From: Promethearchaeota archaeon
GTDB lineage: Archaea > Asgardarchaeota > Lokiarchaeia > Sigyniarchaeales > SOKP01
NCBI GenBank assembly: GCA_016840165.1
Contig: JAEOSU010000080.1
Coordinates: 64,001 to 128,000, forward strand
DNA length: 64,000 nt
Direction of reading: 5' to 3'
Part shown: in pieces, positions 18,098-32,180 of the stretch
How positions within the stretch are numbered: the first letter of the stretch is position 1
How the letters are laid out: the number at the start of each line of letters is the position of its first letter
Notes under the pieces: generated by a model
Seen by the model: only the letters and a program-made list of their open reading frames with translations
Databases searched by the model: none
Told to the model about the DNA's origin: nothing
Program-made: the position numbers and the translations under genes

Positions 18098-21000
18098 TCA
18101 TCCATTCTTTGAACCCTCATGATCATCTTTTTGCGAGTAAAGCAAGTCTGGATAGATAAAGTTAAACTCTTGACTAAATAATGTATGATTTGACCATTGC
18201 TTTTTTCGTTTACTCCAGATTAAGTTGGTGAGAGGGTTATAGTTATCAAGAATCCGATTATTGCCAATAATTGATTTCAAGAAAAAATCACCATCCACTA
18301 AATCCGTTAATATTAAATATTTCTCAACTTTGAGATATTGAAACACATATTCGAAGACTTGTAAAAATTCCGCAAGCTCACATTCGGGTAAATATAATTT
18401 AACCATCAAACCCTTAACGATGGTCTTTTTCTCATCGAATCCATGAATGTAATATTCACCTTTAATATCATATAAATGGACTAAGTTAAAATATTGAAAG
18501 ATATTCTTTAAGATGGGGAGAGCTTCACTTTTAATATTGAACAAGAAAAAGTGGATTGCTTCCTTGAATGCGAGATTTTTAAAAGTGATATAGGGCCATA
18601 CAAATTTGTTTTTGATAAGGAACTTGATCTTCTCAAATATTGATTGTGAATTAAAAGTCAACTTCTTTTTCACATCAACGGATTCACCGTTATAGACTTC
18701 AGTCAACAATTTGAATGCCCTTGTATCGGGTCCAGCATATTCTAGTCCATTTGCTTTATTTAATGCTAATCGCTTTAATTCTGAGTTTTGAAAACTATAT
18801 CTAGGATTAAAAAGCATGTTTTGAACATACATTCTAAAAGTTTTAGAGTCAAAGTACCAACCATCGGAGCCTAAATTAGTATTGAACTGAACAATTTGGG
18901 AAAATGATTCAATTTTAAACAAACAATACTCACGAAGTTTATTTTGACCCCGTAGCCAGTTAAGGTAGGAAGTATTCGGGTCATTATACGGAAAAAGATA
19001 ATTAATCAATAATGAACTGGAGCTATTGATTGAGACGTTATAGTGAATTTTTTGAAAAGTATTAGTGAGCAAGAGTTTTAAATCTATCTCTGCAAAATTA
19101 AACGGGGTAATATATAAGAAATACTGGGAGAGCCCAAACTTGTGAAATAATGGTAATAATCGAATTGAATCAATATAATGATGAAAAAATCGTTCTCTTT
19201 GGGCGATTTTATACTCTTCCATATCCGAAAAATATTCTTCAAGATGATGATTGAATTGTAACAAAAGACGCAGATCCTCCATCTCAAACGAAATATCTTC
19301 TGAACGAAGGCGAGTAAGAACCGTTTCGATAAGTGTTTTCATACCCTTATTCCTCGGCCATAATTTTATGCCATTGACTGAAATCTCAGTAAACGTGGTG
19401 GTCAGCTCGCCCAACACTTTTTGAATAAAGGTATAATATTCAGAAAATAAATCACTAGTATAGAAAAATTCTTTTTTAGTAAAATCATAAAAATCTTTTC
19501 GAGTAAAAGTTTCTAAAAATCCCGTCCATGGATAGCGTTTGAAAGATATAATATTTTCCTTGAACATACTATTCAATGCTGATAAAAAAATTACTTTTTC
19601 ATCACTTATCATATTCGGAATATATAATGACAAAGAGATATATTCTTCATCCGTTGAGAGATCAACTGTTTCATAGTAATAGATTTCTGGAAAATAGCTT
19701 TTTAGTTTTAGAATCGTCTCTTTTACCTCTAGATTACTTTTTAGGATAATATCCGGGAAATAATGAGCCATCCATGGGATGACTGTATTTATTAAATATG
19801 GTTTAAGAATCTGCGGTTCTTTTTTAATAAATTCCTCGAACAAAAGATTAATTGTTTTGTAGGATATCTCGTGAAGATTTGTCCTTGTTTGAAGCTCTCG
19901 AATACGTTCCTTCTTTACACTAATAATTTTTTCTAATGCTTCGGGCTTTGCAATGAGTTGTTTAATGGTGCTAATACTGAAGATTTTTAAGTTTGAACAA
20001 CCATTTAAGAACTTATGAAAAAATTGAAGCCGTTCTACCTCTTTGTGATATTTTTCATTAGCATTTAAATAATCTAAAAACAATTTTTTGAAGTCGTATG
20101 AATCTGTATTAATATCACTGAAGACTCCGTTAGTATCAATTAGCTGCAAAACGTTTTCTTTCTCAACAAACTCTTTAAATTGAATAATATTGAACAAATT
20201 CGATTTTTTTTCAATAATTCGAAAGTAATTGAGCCATTTTTCTAATTCCTCTATGATATAGAAAAACCCAAAATTGCGATTTCTCTCTAAAAAGCCTTGA
20301 AAATCCTTACGAAGGATGGAGGAGACGCGTAAACTCTCTAAACACTCCTCCAATTCTTTAGTGATATTATTTTGGTCAATAATAAAATCATAAAAATCCG
20401 ATTTTATTATGGAGGAAAGCTCCTTACTCCGGGAAAACCCTAATCCTATATACGAGTAAAATCGAACCCGATCCAAAATCAAAAATTTTAGAAGTGTTAA
20501 TCGGGAATTCACAAATTTGTTATGGTATTTTAGTGTAAACTCAAGTTCGTAGTCTTTTGATCCATTTTTAAGGTTTGGTTTAAGTATCTGGCCCTCTTTA
20601 TATGAGTCCAAGAAATAACGTAAATTCAAATTAAAAGTATAATTTTTTGCGAGGGAACAATATTTGTGAATAATATAGCCAGATTGTTCCATTTTATCGA
20701 GCATAGAGAGTAAATCTTTAATGTAAACCCGCGGAATTACAAAATATGAAAACATTTCTACCGCAAAATTGGTAATTGATAACTTTGGCATAACGATAAA
20801 TGGCATTTTATAGATAATTTTATCAATTTGAGCTTTATCTAACTGGGGATTGAATTTCAGACAGCACGCAATTACCGCCATATCCATTGCCTTCCAATCA
20901 GAATAATAGCTGGGAGCGATTCGACCAGACTTATTGATCCAGCGAAGATTTTTTTGAAATTTTCGGTAGCTTAACTCTGTTTTAATAATCCCTTGCTCTT

Positions 21001-21730
21001 TATATTTTGTAAAATATTCATTATATCCTTCCAATGTATCAACATTTTTTGCTCGATAAAATATCTGAGTCAAGACTCGTAGCGATTCGGTAATCTCATT
21101 ATTATTTATTCGATAGGAGGGTTTTTTAAAAGCCGAATCAAGCATATCCAGTAGTAATTGGGGTACCTCATCAAGATTCAGATTTGAGTATTGCCTGATA
21201 CATTCAAAGAAGTATTGTAAAGGAGTTTTCGAATCCAATTCTTTTAATTCGAGGAATTTCTCAAAGCGAAATTTATACTTTTCCTTTGAATAGCGAATAT
21301 ATCTTTCTCGAGCATTTAAAATCCATTCTTCAAGGAAATCAAATTCCTGTAAAGCAATCTCAACCAATTGTATAATAGCATAATCAATTAAATTAGAGTC
21401 TTTTAGGGCATCTGGAACAAAAGAAAAATAAGCACCTTGAAGTAGATAGTAAGGAAAGAACTTTTGATATTCCTTAAAGAGTTTGATATGGTATATTCCC
21501 TCTTCGACATATCTCATCACCCCATAAGAGAATAATTCGCCATCTGTTTCAAGATTTTCAATTTCGTCAAGGATATGTATCCTAAATTTTTTGTTAATTA
21601 CCTCTAAATTAATATAGGCGGTTAGATGGTTTATTAGGTTAAGGAAAATTTGATAAAATTGATTCTCATCATCGATTGTTGTCGCATTTTTCAATTGATT
21701 AAAATTCGGAGGATTAACCAAGCTCATCAA
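18098..21730 (-). CDS. Large hypothetical protein (1210 aa) with internally repeated alpha/beta segments
   Basis: Uninterrupted 3.6-kb ORF with no catalytic motif recognised and no TM segments. Confidence 0.75.
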   Translation of the reverse strand: MMSLVNPPNFNQLKNATTIDDENQFYQIFLNLINHLTAYINLEVINKKFRIHILDEIENLETDGELFSYGVMRYVEEGIYHIKLFKEYQKFFPYYLLQGAYFSFVPDALKDSNLIDYAIIQLVEIALQEFDFLEEWILNARERYIRYSKEKYKFRFEKFLELKELDSKTPLQYFFECIRQYSNLNLDEVPQLLLDMLDSAFKKPSYRINNNEITESLRVLTQIFYRAKNVDTLEGYNEYFTKYKEQGIIKTELSYRKFQKNLRWINKSGRIAPSYYSDWKAMDMAVIACCLKFNPQLDKAQIDKIIYKMPFIVMPKLSITNFAVEMFSYFVIPRVYIKDLLSMLDKMEQSGYIIHKYCSLAKNYTFNLNLRYFLDSYKEGQILKPNLKNGSKDYELEFTLKYHNKFVNSRLTLLKFLILDRVRFYSYIGLGFSRSKELSSIIKSDFYDFIIDQNNITKELEECLESLRVSSILRKDFQGFLERNRNFGFFYIIEELEKWLNYFRIIEKKSNLFNIIQFKEFVEKENVLQLIDTNGVFSDINTDSYDFKKLFLDYLNANEKYHKEVERLQFFHKFLNGCSNLKIFSISTIKQLIAKPEALEKIISVKKERIRELQTRTNLHEISYKTINLLFEEFIKKEPQILKPYLINTVIPWMAHYFPDIILKSNLEVKETILKLKSYFPEIYYYETVDLSTDEEYISLSLYIPNMISDEKVIFLSALNSMFKENIISFKRYPWTGFLETFTRKDFYDFTKKEFFYTSDLFSEYYTFIQKVLGELTTTFTEISVNGIKLWPRNKGMKTLIETVLTRLRSEDISFEMEDLRLLLQFNHHLEEYFSDMEEYKIAQRERFFHHYIDSIRLLPLFHKFGLSQYFLYITPFNFAEIDLKLLLTNTFQKIHYNVSINSSSSLLINYLFPYNDPNTSYLNWLRGQNKLREYCLFKIESFSQIVQFNTNLGSDGWYFDSKTFRMYVQNMLFNPRYSFQNSELKRLALNKANGLEYAGPDTRAFKLLTEVYNGESVDVKKKLTFNSQSIFEKIKFLIKNKFVWPYITFKNLAFKEAIHFFLFNIKSEALPILKNIFQYFNLVHLYDIKGEYYIHGFDEKKTIVKGLMVKLYLPECELAEFLQVFEYVFQYLKVEKYLILTDLVDGDFFLKSIIGNNRILDNYNPLTNLIWSKRKKQWSNHTLFSQEFNFIYPDLLYSQKDDHEGSKNG

Positions 21731-21942
21731 CTACTATATTTCATTTTGTCTAGCATACTATATGGAGAGGTTTGTTTTAAGTTTTTTTATCCAATTATAT
21801 CATTTATCTTATAATTTTCTTCATTTTTAAAGAAAAATTAGATCTATTCAATTGGAAAAGATATAGGATTTGTATATTATTGTAAGATTTATATATAACT
21901 TCTTTCTTGATTTTTATAATAATTCAATTTTGTGATATTAAA

Positions 21943-22638
21943 ATGGTTTCACCAATAGGTTGGCTTGATGGATTAACTGCATCAGGTATAATCCTTTCCT
22001 CAGTTATTTTTGGATTGTTATCGCTCTATAAAGCAAAAAAATTACATGCAAAATTACTCGCTATTGCCGCTCTTACGATGTTTTTTGTTGGCTGTTTATG
22101 GTTAGGTCCTTTTGTAGATTTCATTATGGTACTTTTTTTTAATACAAATTTAAGCGAGAATATATATTATTCTGTCCTCAGCTATACTAATGTCGCTCCG
22201 GCATTAATTTTTGCGATGTATCTTGGAGGCTCCCTTCTCTTACCTAAAAGAAAATGGATAATCGTTGGAATTTATATCATTTTGGGAGGGATATTCGAAT
22301 ACTTTCTATGGTTTCAGAATGCTCAGTCATTTTCATATATTCCTCATGAGGTCGGCGATTTAATTAATGCTGAATTTGTACGTACCTATTATACTTTTTA
22401 CTTTGTTGTCTTATTTTTAATTTCAGCATTAATTTTTCTCGGAATAGGATTTGCAATAAAAGCAAAACAATCAACAGGACAATTACGAAAAAAGTTTTTG
22501 TATTTATCATTAGGGTTTATAATTTTTGTTGTATGTGGTGCTTTAGATTCTGTTCTTACCTTACCAGTAGCAATAGGAGTCATTCGAGCAGTTATGATGA
22601 CTTTCGCTCTTTGGATGTATCTTGGACTTAAAACTTAG
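21943..22638 (+). CDS. Integral membrane protein with about 7 TM helices, function unknown
   Basis: About seven hydrophobic stretches. ATG at 21943 is preceded by a GTGA SD-like motif. Confidence 0.7.
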   Translation: MVSPIGWLDGLTASGIILSSVIFGLLSLYKAKKLHAKLLAIAALTMFFVGCLWLGPFVDFIMVLFFNTNLSENIYYSVLSYTNVAPALIFAMYLGGSLLLPKRKWIIVGIYIILGGIFEYFLWFQNAQSFSYIPHEVGDLINAEFVRTYYTFYFVVLFLISALIFLGIGFAIKAKQSTGQLRKKFLYLSLGFIIFVVCGALDSVLTLPVAIGVIRAVMMTFALWMYLGLKT

Positions 22639-22677
22639 AAATTTAATTCATTCAATTTTTCTTTTTTTATTCTTTTT

Positions 22678-24153
22678 TTATTGTCTGACTTCTTGAATAT
22701 AATCAAAGATCGTATCTACACGTTCTTTTATAGCACCAAATAAGCCCTCTTCTTCTGAAACAACTGAATTAATGGCAGTTTTTAATCCATAGTGACTTTC
22801 AGAAATCAATACTCGTATAGGTAGGGTTAATATCTCACTCATTAGCATCAAAAATTCTTGAACAATTTTAATAATTTTTGGGAATTTTTCTTCAGTCCTC
22901 TCCATAACCGATTGTTCAGATGAAATAAGTCCATCTTCTCGTTCTCTTCTCAATTCCTCCCAGACATTTTCCTTTAATTCGGCAAAATTAATCCCTAAAT
23001 TTTCTAAGGCTAATTGAGCGCCTTCAAATAAATAATTTATATCATCTTTTCCAGTAAATTGTTTTATATTTTCTACCATCTCAGTTGGTGCTAAACCATC
23101 GAGAAATGAGATAAGTAATTGATGATAATCATTAATCACATCAATTGGAATAAATAGTAAACTGAATTCTTTAATTTGTTGGAATAAATATCCTGCAACT
23201 TTCGAAAAGGTTTCATTCGTAAGTACTTTCTCAAGAATACCACCATATTCATTAAATAGATGGATTGCAAGAAAACCTATGATTCTAATCATGTCATCCT
23301 CATAATTTTTAAAATAATCAAAAAAATGCTCTGGTTCCATGTTTAATTTATCTTGGATGATCTCCCGAACCTTGGATTTAATTCCTTCTAAAGGTTCATC
23401 AAGCATCTCCTCAATTTTATCTAAGGAAAGAACATCCTGAAGTGTATCAATCATATCCATTTTTGTCTCTTGGACTGCTTCCTCCTCCAAATCCTCTTCA
23501 AATTTTACATCTGAATTTAATTTATCCTTTATCTTAACTTCTGAGAGTTTTTTCCATTCTAAAGCATCATATATTTTACATTTAAATTGAAGACACTCTT
23601 CTCCTCGTGCCATACATCTTTGTTCAACAATATTTATTCGATAATCATTTCTTTTGATTTTTAAAATAAAATTTGCTACACTTTCAAGCATACCTGTTAA
23701 TCCACAGGCTAAACCCTCGATATTGTCATTTTTTATTTTTTGAAAATCGAAAGTATCAGCATCATCCATACCGTAGCCAGCACATATTGGGCATGTTTTG
23801 ATGCGAATAATATAATCATTATATTTTGATCCTTCGTGAGGGATCTCCTCATAGGTTAAATCTCCTTCCGCAATTTCTTTTCCAAAAACAACTACCCATA
23901 AGAGTTCAAAATAATCAAGTACTTTTTTTGGACTTCCAGGCATGAACTTAAATACACCTGAATGGCGCTCACACGATTCACGTGCCGCTCTTTTCCCGAT
24001 TTCTCGAAGAATAGTGATACTATCTTCTTCATTTTCCGTAATTTCGTTGATTTCTTTTAGAATTTCCCTATAAAGAAGCGTATAAAACAGAGAATTAGTA
24101 TTTCGTCCAAATGCTTTAGTAATTCTTTTTAATAACCATTGAACAGCTCCCAT
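22678..24153 (-). CDS. V4R/Bet3(TRAPP)-like domain protein with helical C-terminal extension
   Basis: LREIGKRAA helix, CPIC, ACGLTGMLE and EQRCMARGEECLQF (V4R ExxCxAxGxxxCxF-like). Confidence 0.65.
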   Translation of the reverse strand: MGAVQWLLKRITKAFGRNTNSLFYTLLYREILKEINEITENEEDSITILREIGKRAARESCERHSGVFKFMPGSPKKVLDYFELLWVVVFGKEIAEGDLTYEEIPHEGSKYNDYIIRIKTCPICAGYGMDDADTFDFQKIKNDNIEGLACGLTGMLESVANFILKIKRNDYRINIVEQRCMARGEECLQFKCKIYDALEWKKLSEVKIKDKLNSDVKFEEDLEEEAVQETKMDMIDTLQDVLSLDKIEEMLDEPLEGIKSKVREIIQDKLNMEPEHFFDYFKNYEDDMIRIIGFLAIHLFNEYGGILEKVLTNETFSKVAGYLFQQIKEFSLLFIPIDVINDYHQLLISFLDGLAPTEMVENIKQFTGKDDINYLFEGAQLALENLGINFAELKENVWEELRREREDGLISSEQSVMERTEEKFPKIIKIVQEFLMLMSEILTLPIRVLISESHYGLKTAINSVVSEEEGLFGAIKERVDTIFDYIQEVRQ

Positions 24154-24155
24154 AC

Positions 24156-24665
24156 CTAATTCCCTCCTATATTATATTTATAGTGATGGATACAAGTTTT
24201 ATTTCCAAGGGATCGCGATTCTGAGACCTCAAATGGTTCTATTGAGAATTCTGGAGTCGGATTTGAGTCTTGGTTGATGATAGAGATGATTTCTGCCATC
24301 ATTGCAATGATAATTTCACACCCAGCTTCATTAATATCATCAAAATGGTATTTACATAGCGCACAGTTACTATCTTTGACTATTATACTGTTTTCTAATT
24401 TATCTAACTCAACTGAAACCCCACTATTTAAAATATTTTTATATAAAGTGGCTAGTATATCCTTAATGTTAGTTAAATTCGCTGAATCGATTGGTTTCCA
24501 GTATTTAATGTAAGTTTGAGCAATGTTTTTTCCCATTCTTCTAAGTTTTGTTTTGATATCTTTAACATCATTTAGCTTCATAAATCGTTCTAGATGATAG
24601 ACTGCATTCCGCAATTGATTCATAGTTGCCTCTGATTGTACTAATTCTTCTCGTGTATAATTCAT
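24156..24665 (-). CDS. Single-domain V4R/Bet3(TRAPP)-like protein
   Basis: LRRMGKNIA helix (Bet3-like), NCALC, AGCE and ESRSLGNKTCIH. Confidence 0.65.
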   Translation of the reverse strand: MNYTREELVQSEATMNQLRNAVYHLERFMKLNDVKDIKTKLRRMGKNIAQTYIKYWKPIDSANLTNIKDILATLYKNILNSGVSVELDKLENSIIVKDSNCALCKYHFDDINEAGCEIIIAMMAEIISIINQDSNPTPEFSIEPFEVSESRSLGNKTCIHHYKYNIGGN

Positions 24666-24865
24666 TATTCACACCTTTTAAGTAATCTTTTAATTAAGTA
24701 ATAGTTGAAAAATTATTTTCTTTTTTAATATTTTCAATTCGATGAGTATATTATTAGTATGTTTTCACAATGAATAAATTTTTCAATCCAAAAACGAAAA
24801 AAGTATGTTAACAGGAACATATTTTCTAAAGTTTGTATATAAGATAAAAGAAAAGAAAAAAGAAA

Positions 24866-25219
24866 TTACATATTAGCAATTATTTCACGAAGGACTGGTT
24901 CTCCTGCAGCACCAATCATCATGCCATTTCGTACAAGGGGTTGCCCTTGAACTTGTATTGTATGATCTAAAAGTTGACCATTTTTGAAAAAAAGCAATGT
25001 TGGAATCGCAGTTATTCCAAATCGTTGTCCAAGTGGACGATTTTGGTCTAGATCCACTTTTAGGACGTGTATCAATCCTTCCTCATGCAGTTTTTCTAAA
25101 ATAGGACTGACAAATTTACATGGACCACACCAAACGGTATAAATATCTATTATTACTTTTCCCTGTTTCATTTCATTAGAAATTTCCAAGCCATATTCTT
25201 TTAATTCTTCGATATTCAA
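24866..25219 (-). CDS. trxA: Thioredoxin
   Basis: WCGPC active site and cis-Pro motif IPTLLFFKNG. Confidence 0.92.
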   Translation of the reverse strand: MNIEELKEYGLEISNEMKQGKVIIDIYTVWCGPCKFVSPILEKLHEEGLIHVLKVDLDQNRPLGQRFGITAIPTLLFFKNGQLLDHTIQVQGQPLVRNGMMIGAAGEPVLREIIANM

Positions 25220-25415
25220 ATCAATGTCTCTCCTTAAAAGGTAAATGATAGAATTATATTTGATAGGTTTATTTGAAAAATCTACTTTTTCTATATTTTT
25301 TTTATATAATTCATTCTTTTTATTCTTTTTATTTATAAAAAATCACATTTCAATCATTAAAAGTCATGAATTTCATCCCTTAACCTTTAAGCGATACAAA
25401 AATGGTCTTAATTAG

Positions 25416-25437
25416 TGAGATTTGATATCAAATCTCA
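25416..25437. promoter_or_regulatory. Perfect 22-bp palindrome (candidate operator) in the divergent trx/hdrC intergenic region
   Basis: TGAGATTTGATATCAAATCTCA is its own reverse complement and lies about 105 bp upstream of the hdrC ATG. Confidence 0.55.
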
Positions 25438-25541
25438 AATATGTGATGCACTACTTAAATCAGTTTAAAATGAAAAGAATTAATTTTAAAATAAAATGTT
25501 AGTTATAGATACATAAGTTCAGAAAAAGATTATCGATTAAA

Positions 25542-26045
25542 ATGGCTACTATTGATTTTGATTTTAGAAACCAGATTATTCAATCTGATATTGGAAGTAC
25601 GCTAGCGTATTGTTATCAATGTGCTACTTGTAGTGGTGCCTGCCCTGTAGCACAAGTAACTAATGGACGATATAATCCCAGACGATTAATATTAGATGCA
25701 TTACTTGGGCTAAAAGAGAAGATTTTTGGGAAAGAGAATGCATTTAATATCTGGGGATGCACTGTTTGTGATACTTGCGACGAAGTTTGCCCGCAAAAAG
25801 TTGAATTAACTGAGATATTTACGATTTTAAAGAATATGAGTATTGAAAGAGGAGAGGGTCCTGAATATTATACAATACAAGCATCAACCATCCTAGAAAA
25901 CGGTAAAGCTATTCCTATGCAACCCGCAATCGAACGAAGAAGAGAACAATTAAATTTACCTCCCGTTCTTCCACCTAATGTAGAAGAAGTTCAAAAATTA
26001 TTAGAAGCTACAAAACTAGCAGATAAAATCAAAAAAGAAGAATAA
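25542..26045 (+). CDS. hdrC: Heterodisulfide reductase subunit C-like 2x[4Fe-4S] protein
   Basis: CYQCATCSGACP and WGCTVCDTCDEVCPQ; C-terminal RREQLNLP motif. Confidence 0.88.
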   Translation: MATIDFDFRNQIIQSDIGSTLAYCYQCATCSGACPVAQVTNGRYNPRRLILDALLGLKEKIFGKENAFNIWGCTVCDTCDEVCPQKVELTEIFTILKNMSIERGEGPEYYTIQASTILENGKAIPMQPAIERRREQLNLPPVLPPNVEEVQKLLEATKLADKIKKEE

Positions 26046-26116
26046 ATCTCATTCATATACTTATTATCGATATCCTTTTTAGCAAACTTTTTCAATTTTT
26101 ATTTATTATAATTGAG

Positions 26117-26893
26117 ATGATAATAAAAATGAGGAAGCCAATAATAGGTGCTAATTGGAAAATGTATAGAGGGGTCCCTTCTGAGGCTGAGGAGATACTC
26201 AGGGAGTTGGTTCCTAAGGTAATTGATATAAAAAATGTTGATATTGTAATTGCTCCTCCTTATACTTCAATTATTAAAACCATAGAACTAATTAAAAATA
26301 CATCTATAAAAGTGGGAGCCCAGAATATGTATTATGAGGAGAAAGGGGCATTCACGGGTGAGATCTCTCCTTTATTTTTAAAGAAGATAGGATGTGAATA
26401 TGTTATTTTAGGTCACAGTGAACGAAGAAATATTTTTAATGAAACTGATGAATTAATTAACAAAAAAGTGAAAAAAGCATTAGAGATAGATTTAACCCCT
26501 ATCGTTTGTATTGGAGAGCATTTAGATGAGAGAGAAAATGGAAAAACTAAAGGTGTTATTGAAAAACAGTTTGAAATGACTTTCGATGGATTGAATCAAG
26601 AAGATATGATAAAGCTTATCATTGCATATGAGCCAATCTGGGCAATAGGCACAGGAAAGACCGCTACACCCGAACAAGCAGAAGAAATCCACATGTTTAT
26701 CAGAAAAATAATAGAAGATAAGTATAATAAAGATACCGCAGAGAGAGTTAGAATCCAATATGGAGGTTCTATAAAACCATCAAATGCTAGAGAATTATTT
26801 AGTAAAGCAAATATTGACGGTGGTTTGGTTGGAGGTGCTTCTTTGCAAGCAGAATCCCTCTATCAAATAATTAAATCCGCTGAGAATTATTAG
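26117..26893 (+). CDS. tpiA: Triosephosphate isomerase (bacterial/eukaryotic long type)
   Basis: NWKM, GHSERR, AYEPIWAIGTG, YGGS and DGGLVGGASL. The start may be 26129. Confidence 0.96.
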   Translation: MIIKMRKPIIGANWKMYRGVPSEAEEILRELVPKVIDIKNVDIVIAPPYTSIIKTIELIKNTSIKVGAQNMYYEEKGAFTGEISPLFLKKIGCEYVILGHSERRNIFNETDELINKKVKKALEIDLTPIVCIGEHLDERENGKTKGVIEKQFEMTFDGLNQEDMIKLIIAYEPIWAIGTGKTATPEQAEEIHMFIRKIIEDKYNKDTAERVRIQYGGSIKPSNARELFSKANIDGGLVGGASLQAESLYQIIKSAENY

Positions 26894-26910
26894 ATTTTAT
26901 GAACACAATT

Positions 26911-27768
26911 TTATCCTAAAATTTGATTAAATCTAACAGCTAATTTACCAGGGAATTCCCCAAGATAAGATTGTGGTTCAGCAAATAGTAGATAAAAGTA
27001 AGATTGAAATAACCCATCCACGGTGGGTCCAACACCTGATTTTATTATATAAACCCATATTTCTTCATTAGAGGTAAAAGATTGCCTATATATCCATTCT
27101 AAGGGTGGAATTTCGGGAATAACTCCAACATTTCTTAGTATAGCATCAATAGTCTGGAAAGAATAGTTATTTCCGTAAGAAAAGATAGGAGATAAATCAA
27201 ATGAAGTAATAGATATCCCTAGCAAACCATACTTTTTCATCTCATTCAAATATCCCTCGCATAACTTAGATATTTCTGTTTTATGATCGTTAATGCGATC
27301 CCTCGCAGTTTTATCGTTTAAAATGTCTATTATTTTATCTTCCTCATTTTGTAAAAGTTCCATGGCAGAATCAAGAGGAATTCTGGTTGAGATAATAGAA
27401 TCATAAATCAATTTAATTTTTGCTTTCACAGATTTATGCAAAATATATGGTTCAGTTTGAGTAGTGATCAATACATCACCTTTATAACGTGATAGTTTTT
27501 TCTCTTGTGCCGCTTTATCTTGAGAATGAAATTCGACAATCTCGATTTTTTTATCGATATTGCGTGCGAATTCAAAAAGAGCAGATACTAACCCAGCATT
27601 AAGTTCAAACATACTCGTCCTATCTAAATCCATCTTTATTTCTTTACTATTTTTTGAAAAATCAAAAAATCTTAGAAAAAGATTAACATCCTTCGGAATT
27701 TCTTTTAATTCTAAATTATAGTAAGGAAATCCAGTGTTAGTTATGATTGATAATACGTAGTATGTCAT
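26911..27768 (-). CDS. Hypothetical protein, possible longin-like plus roadblock/profilin-like domains
   Basis: N-terminal VLSIITNTGFPYY...AGLVSALFEFA pattern; second domain begins GLLGISITSFDLSPIF. Confidence 0.55.
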   Translation of the reverse strand: MTYYVLSIITNTGFPYYNLELKEIPKDVNLFLRFFDFSKNSKEIKMDLDRTSMFELNAGLVSALFEFARNIDKKIEIVEFHSQDKAAQEKKLSRYKGDVLITTQTEPYILHKSVKAKIKLIYDSIISTRIPLDSAMELLQNEEDKIIDILNDKTARDRINDHKTEISKLCEGYLNEMKKYGLLGISITSFDLSPIFSYGNNYSFQTIDAILRNVGVIPEIPPLEWIYRQSFTSNEEIWVYIIKSGVGPTVDGLFQSYFYLLFAEPQSYLGEFPGKLAVRFNQILG

Positions 27769-27893
27769 TTATCTAGGGCTTTAATAAAAATTTTTTTTTA
27801 TTTTTCTATACATATAGATTTGAGTTTAGCTATTTAAATTAATGTAGAAATGAAGAGAAGCATTTAAAAGGTTATTTTGAGGATTTTAAGGAT

Positions 27894-30689
27894 CTATTTA
27901 ATAATGATTGCAGGTCTTCCAGGTAAGGCTTGGAGTGCTTTTTTATTTTTTGATTGATCTTCCTTGATAATATTAATATCACATTGATATTTATTTTTCA
28001 AAATAGATTGAATTTTAGTGAAAAAAGAATACTCCTCTTGCATATTTATCGGCGGAACGCTATATTTCCCGAGATTTTTTAGGACCTTTATGACAGTCTG
28101 AGAAATAAACTTCCCTTTTTCTCGATTCTCTTCTTTAAACATTAATTCCTTTATAATTTCTTTCTGATCCTTAGTTTTATCTGCTAAAGACAGCAACTGT
28201 GATAGAAAGTTATATTTCCATTGATCCGCTATAATCAGATTAATTTCGTCTGGTTGTTCTAATTTAATTATTACAAGGATATGATTAATCGAATCTATAG
28301 TATTATTGAGTAGATTCCATTTATAGTCATTTTCGACTGTAAGATATTTATCATCAAAACCTGGCCATTTTGAGATACTAAGGAATGTATTTTTATTGAG
28401 ATTTTCCCAGATTTCTTCTGTTACATGCGGAATAAAGGGATGGAGTAATATCGTAAATTTTTCTCGACATTCATCAAATACTTCTTGGGATATACCCTCA
28501 TTTTTATATTTTGAAAATTCAGAAGAAAATTGAATCAACTGGTTGATTGCGTCTCGAATATCTATAGATTCTAAGCTTTCAGAAACGTGTTTAATAGTTT
28601 TATGTAAATAATATAAAATTAGGGTATCCCTTATTGTTTCCTTCTTATTGAGATTCTGAGGTTCGTCGCTAAGCATTGAAAAAACATTTCTCACATATTT
28701 GAACGCAAAATCCACCCCTTCATCTGACCATTCCAATCCTGACTTAGGACTTGCTCCAAATAGTATAAAGAATCTCGCCGCATCGGCACCATATTTTTCC
28801 ATTAATCCAATGGGATCAACAGTATTCCCCAAGCTTTTGCTCATTTTAACACTTTTAAGGATGTATTTTGTACCACAGCGTTTACACATCTTATCATCTA
28901 TTTCGTTTTTCATCGCAAACGTTTCGCATTTGGGGCAATAGGGATGATTTTTGTTGATCATACCCTGAGTTAATAACCGTTGGAATGGTTCATCAATCGA
29001 ATGGAGCCCTAAATCCCGTGCTACTTTTGTGAAAAATCGGGCATATAATAGGTGAAGTATAGCATGTTCAATTCCTCCTATGTATTGATCTACATTCATC
29101 CAGTAATTCGCAACTTTTTTCTTATAGGGTAAATATATTTCATGCGGATCACAAAATCTTAGAAAATACCAAGAACTATCAACAAATGTATCCATAGTAT
29201 CGGTCTCACGTTCAGCGGGCTTTCCACATTTAGGACATATAGTTTTAAGGAATGATTCACTAGTCTTTATTGGATTTCCCTTTCCAGTAAACTTTACATC
29301 TTCAGGTAATTTAACTGGTAGGTCCTCATAAGATACGGGAACAATCCCACATCCTTTACAATAGATTATAGGGATAGGACATCCCCAATATCGTTGCCTA
29401 GAAATAAGCCAATCTCTTAATTTGTAATTTATCGTGAATGAGCCTTTATTGATTTTAGTAAGCTTTTCCGTGATTGCTTTAACTGCAGAACGGTTTTCCA
29501 TTCCATTAAATTCCCCGGAGTTGACCAAAATTCCATCTCCCTCGTATGCTCTAGTCATCTTATTTGGATTTAATGCATAATCAAAAGGTTGGATCACAAT
29601 CTTTATAGGGATATCATATTTTTTTGCGAATTCAAAATCTCTTTGATCGTGTCCGGGAACTGCCATAACCGCACCTGCACCATACTCATATATTACAAAA
29701 TTGCCAACATAGACTGGTACTTTTTCACTTGTCATAGGATTAATGGCATATTTACCGATGAATATACCCTTTTTTTCAATCTCTATATCAGTACGGGAAA
29801 ATTTATCTTGTTTTATAACCTCATTGTAAAAAATATTAAAATTTGGTTCGATTTTTGTTCCCTTAACCCATTTTTTAATCCAAGGGTGTTCCGGTGCGAA
29901 AACCATGAAAGTGACTCCAAACAGAGTATCCGGCCTAGTAGTGAAAATATCTATGGTTCTTTCTCCCCCTTCAATCGGAAATTGGATGATGGTTCCCTCT
30001 GAACGTCCAATCCAGTTTCTCTGCATTATCTTTACTTTCTCGGGCCAATCAACTTTATCTAACCCTTCCAGTAATTCCTCTGCATAAGTCCTTATCTTAA
30101 GAAACCACTGAGTAAGAAATTTTTGATTTACTTCCGCACCACAGCGCCAACATTTCCCAGTTAGGACCTGTTCATTCGCTAATACTGTTTGACATTTTGG
30201 ACACCAATTCACATAGCTTTCTTGTCTATATGCTAAACCCTTTTCAAACATTTTAAGAAAAAACCATTGATCCCAACGGTAATAACTTGGATCATGGCTA
30301 AAGATTTTTCGAGTCCAATCATATGAGAGACCGATTCGTTCTTGTTGTGTTTTCATCAACTCAATATTTGCATCGGTATATGATTCAGGATTCGCACCTT
30401 CATCTATAGCTGCATTTTCTGCTGGTAAACCGAATGAGTCGTAACCCATTGGATAAAGAACATTAAAATCATTCATTCTTTTATACCTAGCGTATGCGTC
30501 TCCAATAGAGTAATTTCTTAAATGTCCCATATGCAAACCGCTGCCAGATGGGTACGGATACATTTCTAATACATAAAACTTTTTCTTTTGCTCCTCTGGT
30601 AATTCAGTAACCTCGAAAATTTTTTCTTTTTTCCATCTGCTTTGCCATTTTTTCTCAATTGCTTTAAAATTATATTCTCGATTTGCCAT
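27894..30689 (-). CDS. leuS: Leucyl-tRNA synthetase
   Basis: MYPYPSG-x-GLHMGH (HIGH), KMSKS, CP1 TTRPDT and [17 protein letters not shown] and YIGGIEHA. Confidence 0.96.
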
Positions 30690-30906
30690 TCTAATCCTAA
30701 TACTTTCTTAAAATATACCAATTATAAATATTACCTTGAATAATTGATTGATTAAATTTTTTTGGAAAAAAACTCCTTCTAACGAAAACGTGAGGTATTT
30801 TAAAAAATAAAAATCTAAAAATTAGGAGTTTAAATATATATTTCTTTAAGGATACTTGTATCTGTAAAGATGCATGATATCAATTTCTAGTAAAGGGGTT
30901 ATTAAA

Positions 30907-31017
30907 GTGAAATTGAAAATTTACCAAGTACTTATGTTTGCTTTAATCGGCTTTATCTCCAGTTTACCTCTCATGAGCATGGCTTTATGCGGTCAGGGGG
31001 GTACTGGAGGACCATAA
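30907..31017 (+). CDS. Putative 36-aa hydrophobic small protein MKLKIYQVLMFALIGFISSLPLMSMALCGQGGTGGP
   Basis: GTG start after a GGGG SD-like motif (in-frame ATG also at 30874), TAA at 31015-31017; below the ORF-track size cutoff. Confidence 0.3.
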   Translation: MKLKIYQVLMFALIGFISSLPLMSMALCGQGGTGGP

Positions 31018-31058
31018 AGAACCAATTTTTATGGTATGGCGACTAGCAAACAGTATTT
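30926..31058 (+). ncRNA. Putative structured RNA element (nested long hairpin / three-way junction)
   Basis: Nested complementary segments with G-U pairs that favour the + strand, followed by T8 at 31061-31068. Details in findings. Confidence 0.55.
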
Positions 31059-31160
31059 CCTTTTTTTTATTATATCATCGAACTTAAGATACCTTTACTA
31101 TTAGTTCAACTTAAAGATTTTTTGGCAAAACTTAATTTTAACCAAAGACTTAGGTACTTA

Positions 31161-32180
31161 ATGGGAGTAGAGAAGATACGAGTATCAATCGGGAGTGCTT
31201 CTGTGCTTGGTTTATATGGAGGCGCCCGTTTTAAAGATCCTCCAACAACATGTTATCTTATGACGTATTCCGCTGGAAATGATCCTGTTGGTAGACGTTG
31301 CTTAGGAAATTGTGGCTTTTGCCCTCAAGCACGTGATGCAGAAAGTTCACTTGAATTGTTATCCAGAGTTACATGGCCAGTATATCATTTAAAGGAAGTT
31401 TTCACGAAATTAAAGTATTTATCTCCAAATAAGCAGTTCAAACGAATATGCGTTCAAACTTTAAACTACACTCAAAATTTTGAAGATTTAAAATACATCA
31501 TTACTCAAATTAGGAGAAACAACAATACTCCTATATCTATCGCCATCCCTCCTTTTACTGAAGAAAAATTGAAGGAATTAAAACGAATAGGAGTGGAAAG
31601 AGTGGGTATCGCATTAGATGCATCAACACAGGAAATTTTCGATAAGATTAAAGGAAAGGGAGTAGATGGTCCATATCGTTGGGAGCACCACTTTAAGACT
31701 TTGGAAAATGCATTAAATATTTTTTCCGAAGGAAAGGTGTCTACCCATTTGATTATAGGATTAGGGGAAACTTCTAAGGATGTGGCAGAATTGATTATGC
31801 GGTTAAGTAATATGAAAATAACGGTTGGATTATTTTCCTTTACCCCAATTAAGGGAACGAGTTTAGAAAAATTAAGCCCTCCAGATCTTTTGCGATTCAG
31901 AAAAATTCAACTTGCACTTTACCTTATTGCTAAAAAGAATCGAACTTTAAACGAGATTACGTTTAATACAAGGGGAGATATTATTAAATTTAATTTGAAT
32001 AAGGTTGAACTATTGCAAATCATTCAAGAAAGTGATGCTTTTTTAACAACGGGTTGTCCCGGATGTAATCGGCCATATTATACATCGAAACCGTCGGGTC
32101 CAATTTATAATTTTCCCAGAAAGTTGACTCAAGAAGAAATGAAGATTATTTATAATTCTCTGTTAAAATATGTGAATTAA
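31161..32180 (+). CDS. lipS2: Radical SAM lipoyl synthase subunit LipS2 type
   Basis: CLGNCGFC (CxxxCxxC) and C-terminal TTGCPGCNRP, the LipS2 signature; adjacent to an lplA-like gene and lipS1. ATG at 31161 is preferred over TTG at 31122. Confidence 0.82.
   Translation: MGVEKIRVSIGSASVLGLYGGARFKDPPTTCYLMTYSAGNDPVGRRCLGNCGFCPQARDAESSLELLSRVTWPVYHLKEVFTKLKYLSPNKQFKRICVQTLNYTQNFEDLKYIITQIRRNNNTPISIAIPPFTEEKLKELKRIGVERVGIALDASTQEIFDKIKGKGVDGPYRWEHHFKTLENALNIFSEGKVSTHLIIGLGETSKDVAELIMRLSNMKITVGLFSFTPIKGTSLEKLSPPDLLRFRKIQLALYLIAKKNRTLNEITFNTRGDIIKFNLNKVELLQIIQESDAFLTTGCPGCNRPYYTSKPSGPIYNFPRKLTQEEMKIIYNSLLKYVN

Follow-up and report, generated by a model that had tools for sequence, protein, structure and literature searches.

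The closest described counterparts of the gene reported here are hok/sok of plasmid R1 and aapA/isoA of Helicobacter pylori (PMC6733600, PMC5416894), and the hallmarks of such type I toxin mRNAs are primary transcripts that cannot be translated and long-distance interactions between their 5' and 3' ends (PMC6733600). The gene lies in a stretch of 64,000 nucleotides from a Promethearchaeota archaeon (assembly GCA_016840165.1, contig JAEOSU010000080.1, positions 64,001 to 128,000; hereafter the window), within the intergenic region 30690-31161 that separates leuS on the left (27894-30689, - strand) from lipS2 on the right (ATG at 31161), where an initial annotation had described an extensively paired RNA element. 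Judged from its sequence and its homologs, this element is very probably the mRNA of an unannotated gene for a conserved 36-residue membrane peptide of Lokiarchaeia, an mRNA whose 3' end folds onto its coding region. As in hok and aapA, a short open reading frame (ORF) for a hydrophobic helix sits on a small transcript of its own, the start of translation is marked by a hairpin, the 3' end loops back to pair with the 5' part of the molecule and in a sister genus reaches the start codon, and the gene is patchily distributed, with multiple and tandem copies in some genomes. It differs from them in that the fold-back of the window copy covers codons 7-15 and not the Shine-Dalgarno (SD) motif or the start, in that the peptide tail is Gly-rich and uncharged and the peptide has no sequence similarity to any toxin family, and in its setting, an Asgard host with a TATA promoter and an oligo-T terminator where no antisense RNA is known. 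The mRNA thus appears to resemble a type I toxin mRNA in layout, a likeness that does not establish membership, as the start in the window copy is only partly occluded.

Among archaea, the small-protein transcripts (spRNAs) of Methanosarcina mazei are the nearest parallel: stand-alone, short transcripts that encode small proteins and are thought to be regulated at the level of RNA (bioRxiv 10.1101/2025.10.28.685009). They come from another phylum and bear no sequence relation to the present gene, they have an identified antisense RNA (asRNA) partner where none is identified here, and the helix between the ORF and the 3' untranslated region (UTR) that is conserved here is not known to be among the described features of spRNAs. 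Searches of the literature on Asgard small proteins, archaeal type I systems and Lokiarchaeum transcriptomes turned up no direct precedent beyond the M. mazei work. Small proteins of Asgard archaea are systematically missed, and the gene described here had itself been read as an RNA.

Two kinds of bacterial small protein also invite comparison: KdpF, AcrZ, MgtS and CydX are small membrane proteins that accompany larger partners, and Phr, PapR and NprX are exported signalling-peptide precursors of Firmicutes. With the former the peptide shares a length of 30-40 residues, a single transmembrane helix and a gene beside a specific, co-occurring larger gene, but the candidate partner here is a predicted soluble protein of ~1,210 residues encoded divergently rather than in the same operon. 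With the latter it shares the outline of a ~40-residue precursor whose N-terminus carries a hydrophobic, export-like segment and whose C-terminus is a short conserved peptide, but no RRNPP-type receptor is encoded nearby, the hydrophobic segment is of transmembrane length and the host is an archaeon.

The features of the small gene, all within the window, are as follows.

30829-30836, + strand: TATA box TTTAAATA of the small gene, invariant in 17 of 17 aligned homologous units and forming the abrupt 5' edge of the homology shared with the second genomic copy.
30851-30862, + strand: near-palindrome GATACTTGTATC at the predicted transcription start (~30859, placed from the TATA position).
30881-30915, + strand: hairpin of the 5' UTR, CAATTTC with GAAATTG and TAGTAA with TTATTA, in the minimum free energy (MFE) structure of the 209-nt transcript.
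30907-31017, + strand: ORF of 36 codons plus stop (TAA), with a GTG start, encoding the peptide MKLKIYQVLMFALIGFISSLPLMSMALCGQGGTGGP; frame conserved in homologs.
30926-30951, + strand: 5' arm of the long-range helix, within the ORF (codons 7-15), pairing with 31038-31058 (P >0.9).
30957-31009, + strand: inner helices CTCCAGT with ACTGGAG and ACCTCTC with GGGGGGT, and an apical GCATG hairpin (P >0.9 in the window copy).
31011-31035, + strand: local hairpin ACCATAAA with TTTATGGT over the Pro and stop codons (P 0.99).
31038-31058, + strand: 3' arm of the long-range helix, in the 3' UTR just ahead of the T-run, seen in the MFE structure and in the ensemble.
31061-31068, + strand: T8 run, an archaeal-type terminator by sequence; an oligo-T run is common to the homologous units.

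The evidence that the element is coding comes from homologs obtained from metagenome proteins and their contigs, a pattern scan, and hidden Markov model (HMM) searches of the genomes of relatives. Twenty distinct homologous ORFs of 36-41 codons, from three genera of one Lokiarchaeial family, are open in this frame only, with GTG, ATG and TTG exchanged at a single start position. Insertions and deletions in the ORF alignments are whole codons, those of the 3' UTR are of many lengths, and variable columns fall on codon positions 1, 2 and 3 in the numbers 18, 14 and 32. Across the 20 ORFs the median ratio of nonsynonymous to synonymous differences (pN/pS) was 0.44 in frame, compared with 0.84 and 1.29 in the shifted frames, and it was below 1 in 183 of the 190 pairs. 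In the G016 unit no in-frame start codon lies further upstream; gene callers applied to the metagenomes give either a 47-residue form or a 38-41-residue form beginning MKLK, and a search for longer or fused forms of the peptide found none. These ~20 distinct sequences from three genera constitute a further conserved family of small ORFs.

The family consensus, M-K-L-x-K-x-Y-x-V-L-L-F-V-L-I-G-x-x-S-x-L-P-M-x-S-x-V-L-G-x-x-G-x-G-G-G-P, combines a basic N-terminus (MKLK) with one helix of transmembrane length that has an invariant-like LP kink; its Gly-rich tail is conserved and ends in GGP. AlphaFold2 (AF2) predicted a helix at residues 2-28 (pLDDT 80) followed by a disordered Gly tail, and the hydropathy of the peptide (maximum KD19 2.05) fits a membrane span. 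The codon pattern and the structural model show a peptide with the predicted shape of a single-pass membrane helix that is under purifying selection.

The borders of the unit support reading the segment that extends from the TATA box at 30829 through the T8 run (to 31068) as a putative stand-alone transcription unit with a transcript of ~210 nt. It comprises a predicted 5' UTR of ~48 nt, an SD-like purine-rich motif, AGGGG, ~8 nt 5' of the start codon, the ORF, a 3' UTR of 43 nt and the terminator; G+C content peaks locally at 0.46 in the element, against 0.19-0.24 in the flanks, and all homologous units analysed end in at least six T residues, 26-57 nt past the stop codon. The initial annotation had placed a TATA-like box and a T8 tract at these same positions, and its proposal of an independent transcript stands; its proposal that the transcript is non-coding does not, given the conserved ORF of 36-41 codons and the SD-like motif. 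With promoter, SD, start and terminator defined, the unit serves as a worked example of Lokiarchaeial gene signals.

A second copy of the element (C2), 94% identical, lies on another contig of the same genome at an unrelated locus, flanked by an enoyl-CoA hydratase gene and a TrkA_N channel-like gene. Homology between the two copies starts abruptly at the TATA box and fades within ~40 nt past the T-run, so that the conserved block, which is also common to the copies of relatives, consists of promoter, ~210 nt transcript and terminator. This conservation from promoter to terminator at an unrelated locus excludes both a leader specific to the lipoate operon and a miniature inverted-repeat transposable element (MITE). 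C2 itself is a later duplication of the bare transcription unit.

Folding of the window copy is exceptionally strong. The 143-nt core (30920-31062, + strand) reached -49.7 kcal/mol compared with -31.1 +/- 3.1 for dinucleotide shuffles (z -6.0, 0 of 200 as good), and the + strand is favoured because the 209-nt stretch gave z -4.0 on the + strand and -2.9 on the - strand. These values bear out what the initial annotation had expected of folding and of strand, and every complementary segment it listed was found where it had placed it. It had also given the segment at 31010-31019 three competing partners with mutually exclusive folds; the partners exist in the sequence, but in the Boltzmann ensemble the local hairpin at 31011-31035 (P 0.99) and the outer helices (>0.9) prevail, and both alternatives, CTTTAT (30951) with ATAAAG and the one at 30983-30994, have P ~0. 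With the alternatives at this level and the core centroid nearly identical to the MFE structure, there is no thermodynamic sign of a switch. The inner helices join Ser/Leu/Pro codons to the Gly-tail codons, and in the 5' hairpin AGGGG (30894-30898) occupies the loop, with the last base of the GTG start and codons 2-3 in the stem.

Comparison with relatives separates what is peculiar to this copy from what is shared. From start codon to T-run, z was -4.9 for the window copy, -2.7 for its paralog, -2.9 for the ortholog L051 and -2.75 for L018; the exceptional overall stability is particular to the window copy, less so to its close relatives, and is not a property of the family. The inner helices are weakened or lost in L013, L015 and L029 and are mainly a property of the window copy and its closest relatives, and the local hairpin is kept in C2, L013 and L051, weakened in L015 and deleted in L029/G034. 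The one family-wide RNA feature, which is recurrent, is the long-range helix between ORF codons ~7-16 and the 3' UTR directly before the T-run. It is part of the MFE structures of the window copy, C2, L013, L015, G016 and L051, and it is present in the RNAalifold consensus of both groups, that of the window and that of the sister genus, with the last 20-30 nt of the 3' UTR as its conserved 3' arm.

In the sister genus the interaction is more extensive, with ~20 bp between ORF and 3' UTR plus 7-10 bp between the start region (TTGAAAT) and the extreme 3' end (ATTTCAA). In 5 of the 11 units this duplex scored z -4 to -5.5 and none of 300 shuffles equalled it; 90% of cells were paired compared with 34-49% for slid partners. 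Compensatory changes accompany the helix: C30948-G31041 becomes U-A in C2, G30936-C31051 becomes A-U and C30931-G31053 becomes U-A in G034/L029, and two further compensatory pairs occur within the sister genus. Read by eye, the sister-genus 5' UTRs are able to form a hairpin equivalent to that of the window (ATTTCA with TGAAAT, TTAAT with ATTAA, AGGT in the loop); the computed MFE structure of G113a instead pairs the start region with the 3' end. A 3' UTR that has co-evolved with its own coding region, as these pairings suggest, is best known from bacterial toxin mRNAs and has barely been explored in archaea.

Several observations weigh against the interpretation as a folded membrane-peptide mRNA or against parts of it. 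Whole-transcript folding in L013, L015, L029 and G016 is not better than in shuffles (z -0.3 to -1.2), and the duplex of ORF and 3' UTR taken alone is not significant in the window's own group (z about -1). Most pairs do not vary at all, so that covariation gives thin support, and compensatory changes are few. The 3' arm of L018/L019 has as its partner not the ORF but a copy of the ORF segment located in the 3' UTR itself, and in the window copy the SD sits in a loop and is not occluded. Neither copy in the window's genome adjoins the large protein described below. For the peptide, Pfam, NCBIfam and PADLOC hold no matching family and an ESM Atlas feature search gave no usable match, so its role can only be inferred.

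The 3' UTRs of L018 (3118-3166) and L019 (1194-1242) contain the local hairpin ATGTTTGCTTTAAT-AGCAAACA, in which the 5' arm together with the loop matches the ORF segment ATGTTTGCTTTAAT of the window gene exactly; it looks as though a gene copy with an internal deletion had turned into the terminator hairpin.

A large orphan protein is the most consistent neighbour of the small gene. This protein, of ~1,210-1,221 residues, is encoded divergently ~100-280 nt away at most loci, and a homolog is divergent and adjacent in G016, G113 (twice), G107 (twice), G102, G072, L018, L029 and L051. The large-protein family as a whole occurs in 109 of 135 genomes of the Lokiarchaeial family, and the members that adjoin small genes all belong to the subclade sharing at least 55% identity with the query; the window has a member of this linked subclade at 18098-21730 (- strand). 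It is predicted to be soluble (maximum KD19 1.13), searches of Pfam, NCBIfam, PADLOC and PDB sequences returned no match, and an AF2 model of the N-terminal 430 residues built from 9 sequences had pLDDT 56, too poor for a fold search. The synteny link gives a handle on the function of this orphan protein. Large-protein loci were recorded at L018, L029, L033, L034, L037-L039, L043, L046 and L049-L051, and paralogous pairs of large and small genes occur within G107 and within G113.

On the P0007 contig and in L051 the order is large protein (reverse strand), small gene, lipS2, lplA, lipS1 and cofE; leuS had been considered as the left neighbour of the small gene there, and that neighbour is the large-protein homolog. 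A leuS-lipS2 context for L029/G034 was likewise ruled out by Pfam. In the window both halves of the ancestral intergenic region between large and small gene are still recognisable, so that the ~9.1 kb that separates the two genes here (21.8-30.8 kb, leuS included) has come between them in this genome. The interval 21800-30800 contains genes for a 243-residue polytopic membrane protein, two Bet3-like genes, trxA/hdrC-like genes, a longin-like gene and leuS.

These observations suggest a mechanism in which the finished mRNA would fold compactly, be poorly translated and resist 3'-to-5' exonuclease decay. The compact fold would restrain peptide synthesis by limiting the access of ribosomes, and the 5' hairpin holding the start codon could do the same restraining job during transcription. 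Such a lock would parallel the metastable hairpins and the 5'-3' interaction of the hok and aapA mRNAs (PMC6733600). The peptide would then act in the membrane, with the divergent ~1,210-residue protein or under its control. Ranking its possible functions, we tentatively place first a small membrane peptide functionally tied to, or regulated by, this protein; a function like that of type I toxins seems rather unlikely, export or processing would be more unlikely again, and other functions account for the remainder. That all of this forms a hitherto undescribed two-part module specific to Lokiarchaeia, a micropeptide gene with a hok/aapA-like mRNA lock, toxin-like or rationed, together with the ~1,210-residue subclade, is an idea we regard as doubtful.

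A more specific form of the folded-mRNA interpretation is a type I toxin-like module, in which the peptide would harm the membrane, the 5' hairpin and the 3' fold-back would keep the mRNA inactive, on the model of hok/aapA, and an unseen antisense or trans RNA, or 3' trimming, would provide control. We think this improbable, on mixed evidence. The peptide is a hydrophobic single helix of 36-41 residues, under the 60 residues of such toxins; some genomes carry several copies, including tandem pairs; the distribution is patchy, with 12 of 154 genomes matched, two of them falsely; and sister-genus transcripts pair their 3' end with codons 8-16 as well as with the region of the start codon. In the flank alignments, however, no antitoxin RNA or conserved antisense promoter was identified: antisense TATA boxes were sought in them by eye for both groups and nothing convincing was seen, and antisense TATA-like motifs are uninformative because the flanks are AT-rich. 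The SD of the window copy is unpaired in a loop, with the fold-back on codons 7-15 and not on the start site; nor would a type I toxin typically have so strictly conserved and uncharged a tail (GxGGGP) or keep stable synteny with a single protein subclade. We know of no type I system that has been experimentally established in archaea, and if the peptide were toxic and controlled by RNA, this would be, to our knowledge, the first type I-like system in the domain. A secreted or processed precursor is less probable still: the basic n-region and hydrophobic core, a Pro that precedes a small-x-small site (A-L-C or V-L-G) by 8 residues, and a conserved short tail, a signal-peptide pattern judged by eye in alignment A8, could describe a Sec-type signal peptide with a C-terminal octapeptide (x-x-G-x-G-G-G-P), but the hydrophobic stretch, at ~21 residues, has the length of a membrane anchor. 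The variant in which neighbouring radical S-adenosylmethionine (SAM) enzymes would make a ribosomally synthesised and post-translationally modified peptide draws on the radical SAM genes downstream in the window and L051, but these score as LipS2/LipS1 equivalogs and most other copies have no radical SAM neighbour.

Readings in which the nucleic acid itself is functional fare worse. A dual-function RNA, translated and also acting as a base-pairing regulator like SgrS, RNAIII or the Methanosarcina spRNAs, would agree with the size and autonomy of the transcript, with a 5' UTR and 3' UTR arm conserved at the nucleotide level beyond coding needs, and with the spRNA/asRNA pairs reported in M. mazei (bioRxiv 10.1101/2025.10.28.685009), but intramolecular pairing with the ORF and the start region already accounts for the conserved non-coding segments, no target emerged, although no search aimed at one was made, and we consider it very unlikely. 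Only a slim chance is left for a structured non-coding RNA, whether a small RNA or a riboswitch or leader of the lipS2-lplA-lipS1-cofE operon, with the ORF fortuitous. The initial annotation had favoured such readings, to which the very strong folding of the window copy with its + strand preference, the few compensatory pairs and a position upstream of lipS2 in two species lend some weight; yet purifying selection is frame-specific and indels are whole codons across three genera, the pattern of conservation is that of codons, and several homologs no longer fold well overall. As to a lipoate/F420 leader, the unit has its own terminator ahead of lipS2, and other copies precede unrelated genes (TrkA_N channel-like, ribosomal L15e and a CxxCxxCC protein), so this suggestion fails. 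The initial annotation had not recognised the element as SRP RNA, RNase P RNA, 5S rRNA or a tRNA, and it matches no curated family of structured RNA: with gathering thresholds, the one Rfam match that cmscan gave in the window was a tRNA outside the element, and a permissive scan (E up to 10) gave only chance snoRNA matches outside the element; the want of an Rfam match and alternative folds at P ~0 also argue against a riboswitch, and a false riboswitch candidate for lipoate/F420 metabolism is thereby removed. Hardly credible at all is a MITE or repetitive extragenic palindromic (REP) DNA element whose hairpin acts as DNA, for which two genomic copies and inverted repeats inside the unit could be cited. 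The initial annotation had named many dispersed copies as the sign of such an element, but the genome holds only two, each with promoter, ORF and terminator, and the borders coincide with promoter and terminator, carry no terminal inverted repeats or target-site duplications in either copy, and the copies of related species stand at syntenic positions.

With the folded membrane-peptide mRNA as the preferred interpretation, the distribution of the gene can be followed across the order, where an HMM survey (E <= 0.01) matched 12 of 154 genomes, all within one family. By genus the matches were 3 of 41 (plus the window's own genome), 7 of 54 and 1 of 1. Some genomes carry 2-4 copies; in G107 and G113 tandem pairs are spaced by 267-269 nt, and G072 also has a pair. 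Among the 12, the matches in G064 and G127 are false and that in G120 (L040) is a 5'-truncated remnant in which only the 3' half of the gene is left; the HMM matches L024, L041 and L047 are false positives. Decay is visible in G034 (L004 628-633), where a TGA lies two codons ahead of the usual stop and the metagenome twins L029/L030 are intact, and in L053, where the ORF is kept and the TATA box, the SD (CCC replacing GGG) and the terminator are lost.

Smaller features mark the ends of the unit. The near-palindrome at the predicted start is perfect as GATACATGTATC in the paralog and L013, with the 12-bp form GATAC(A/T)TGTATC recorded at window 30851-30862 and at about 1523-1534 of L011; its core TACATGTA is retained in the ortholog L051 and the segment is missing from sister-genus units. 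A role as an operator, or as an RNA hairpin at the 5' terminus, is conceivable. At the other end, three independent contigs stop 87-102 nt past the ORF, i.e. ~40-50 nt beyond the T-run, so that a repeat may be present at that point. The sister-genus loci L034, L035, L037, L039, L043 and L046 share a conserved block ~40 nt after the T-run (ACATTTATTCCTCT.ATT.CTTGGAT...). Candidate roles for it are those of an antisense promoter, of a downstream promoter element or of the border at which the duplicating unit recombines.

Downstream of lipS2 in the window follow lplA, lipS1 and a cofE/fbiB-like gene, and lipS2 and lipS1 are equivalogs above curated cut-offs (LipS2 335 bits, cut-off 270; LipS1 263 bits, cut-off 230). 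An AT-rich motif, AAAACTTAATTTT, lies ~35-45 nt 5' of the lipS2 start and is shared by the window (31069-31160) and L051 (930-973). Because it may be the TATA box of lipS2 itself, this gene need not rely on read-through from the small gene. The leucyl-tRNA synthetase on the other side (27894-30689, - strand) is of bacterial type, and since its score for the bacterial model passes the cut-off (TIGR00396 leuS_bact, 971 bits) and that for the archaeal model falls below it (288 bits), the comparison suggests that leuS in the window was acquired horizontally.

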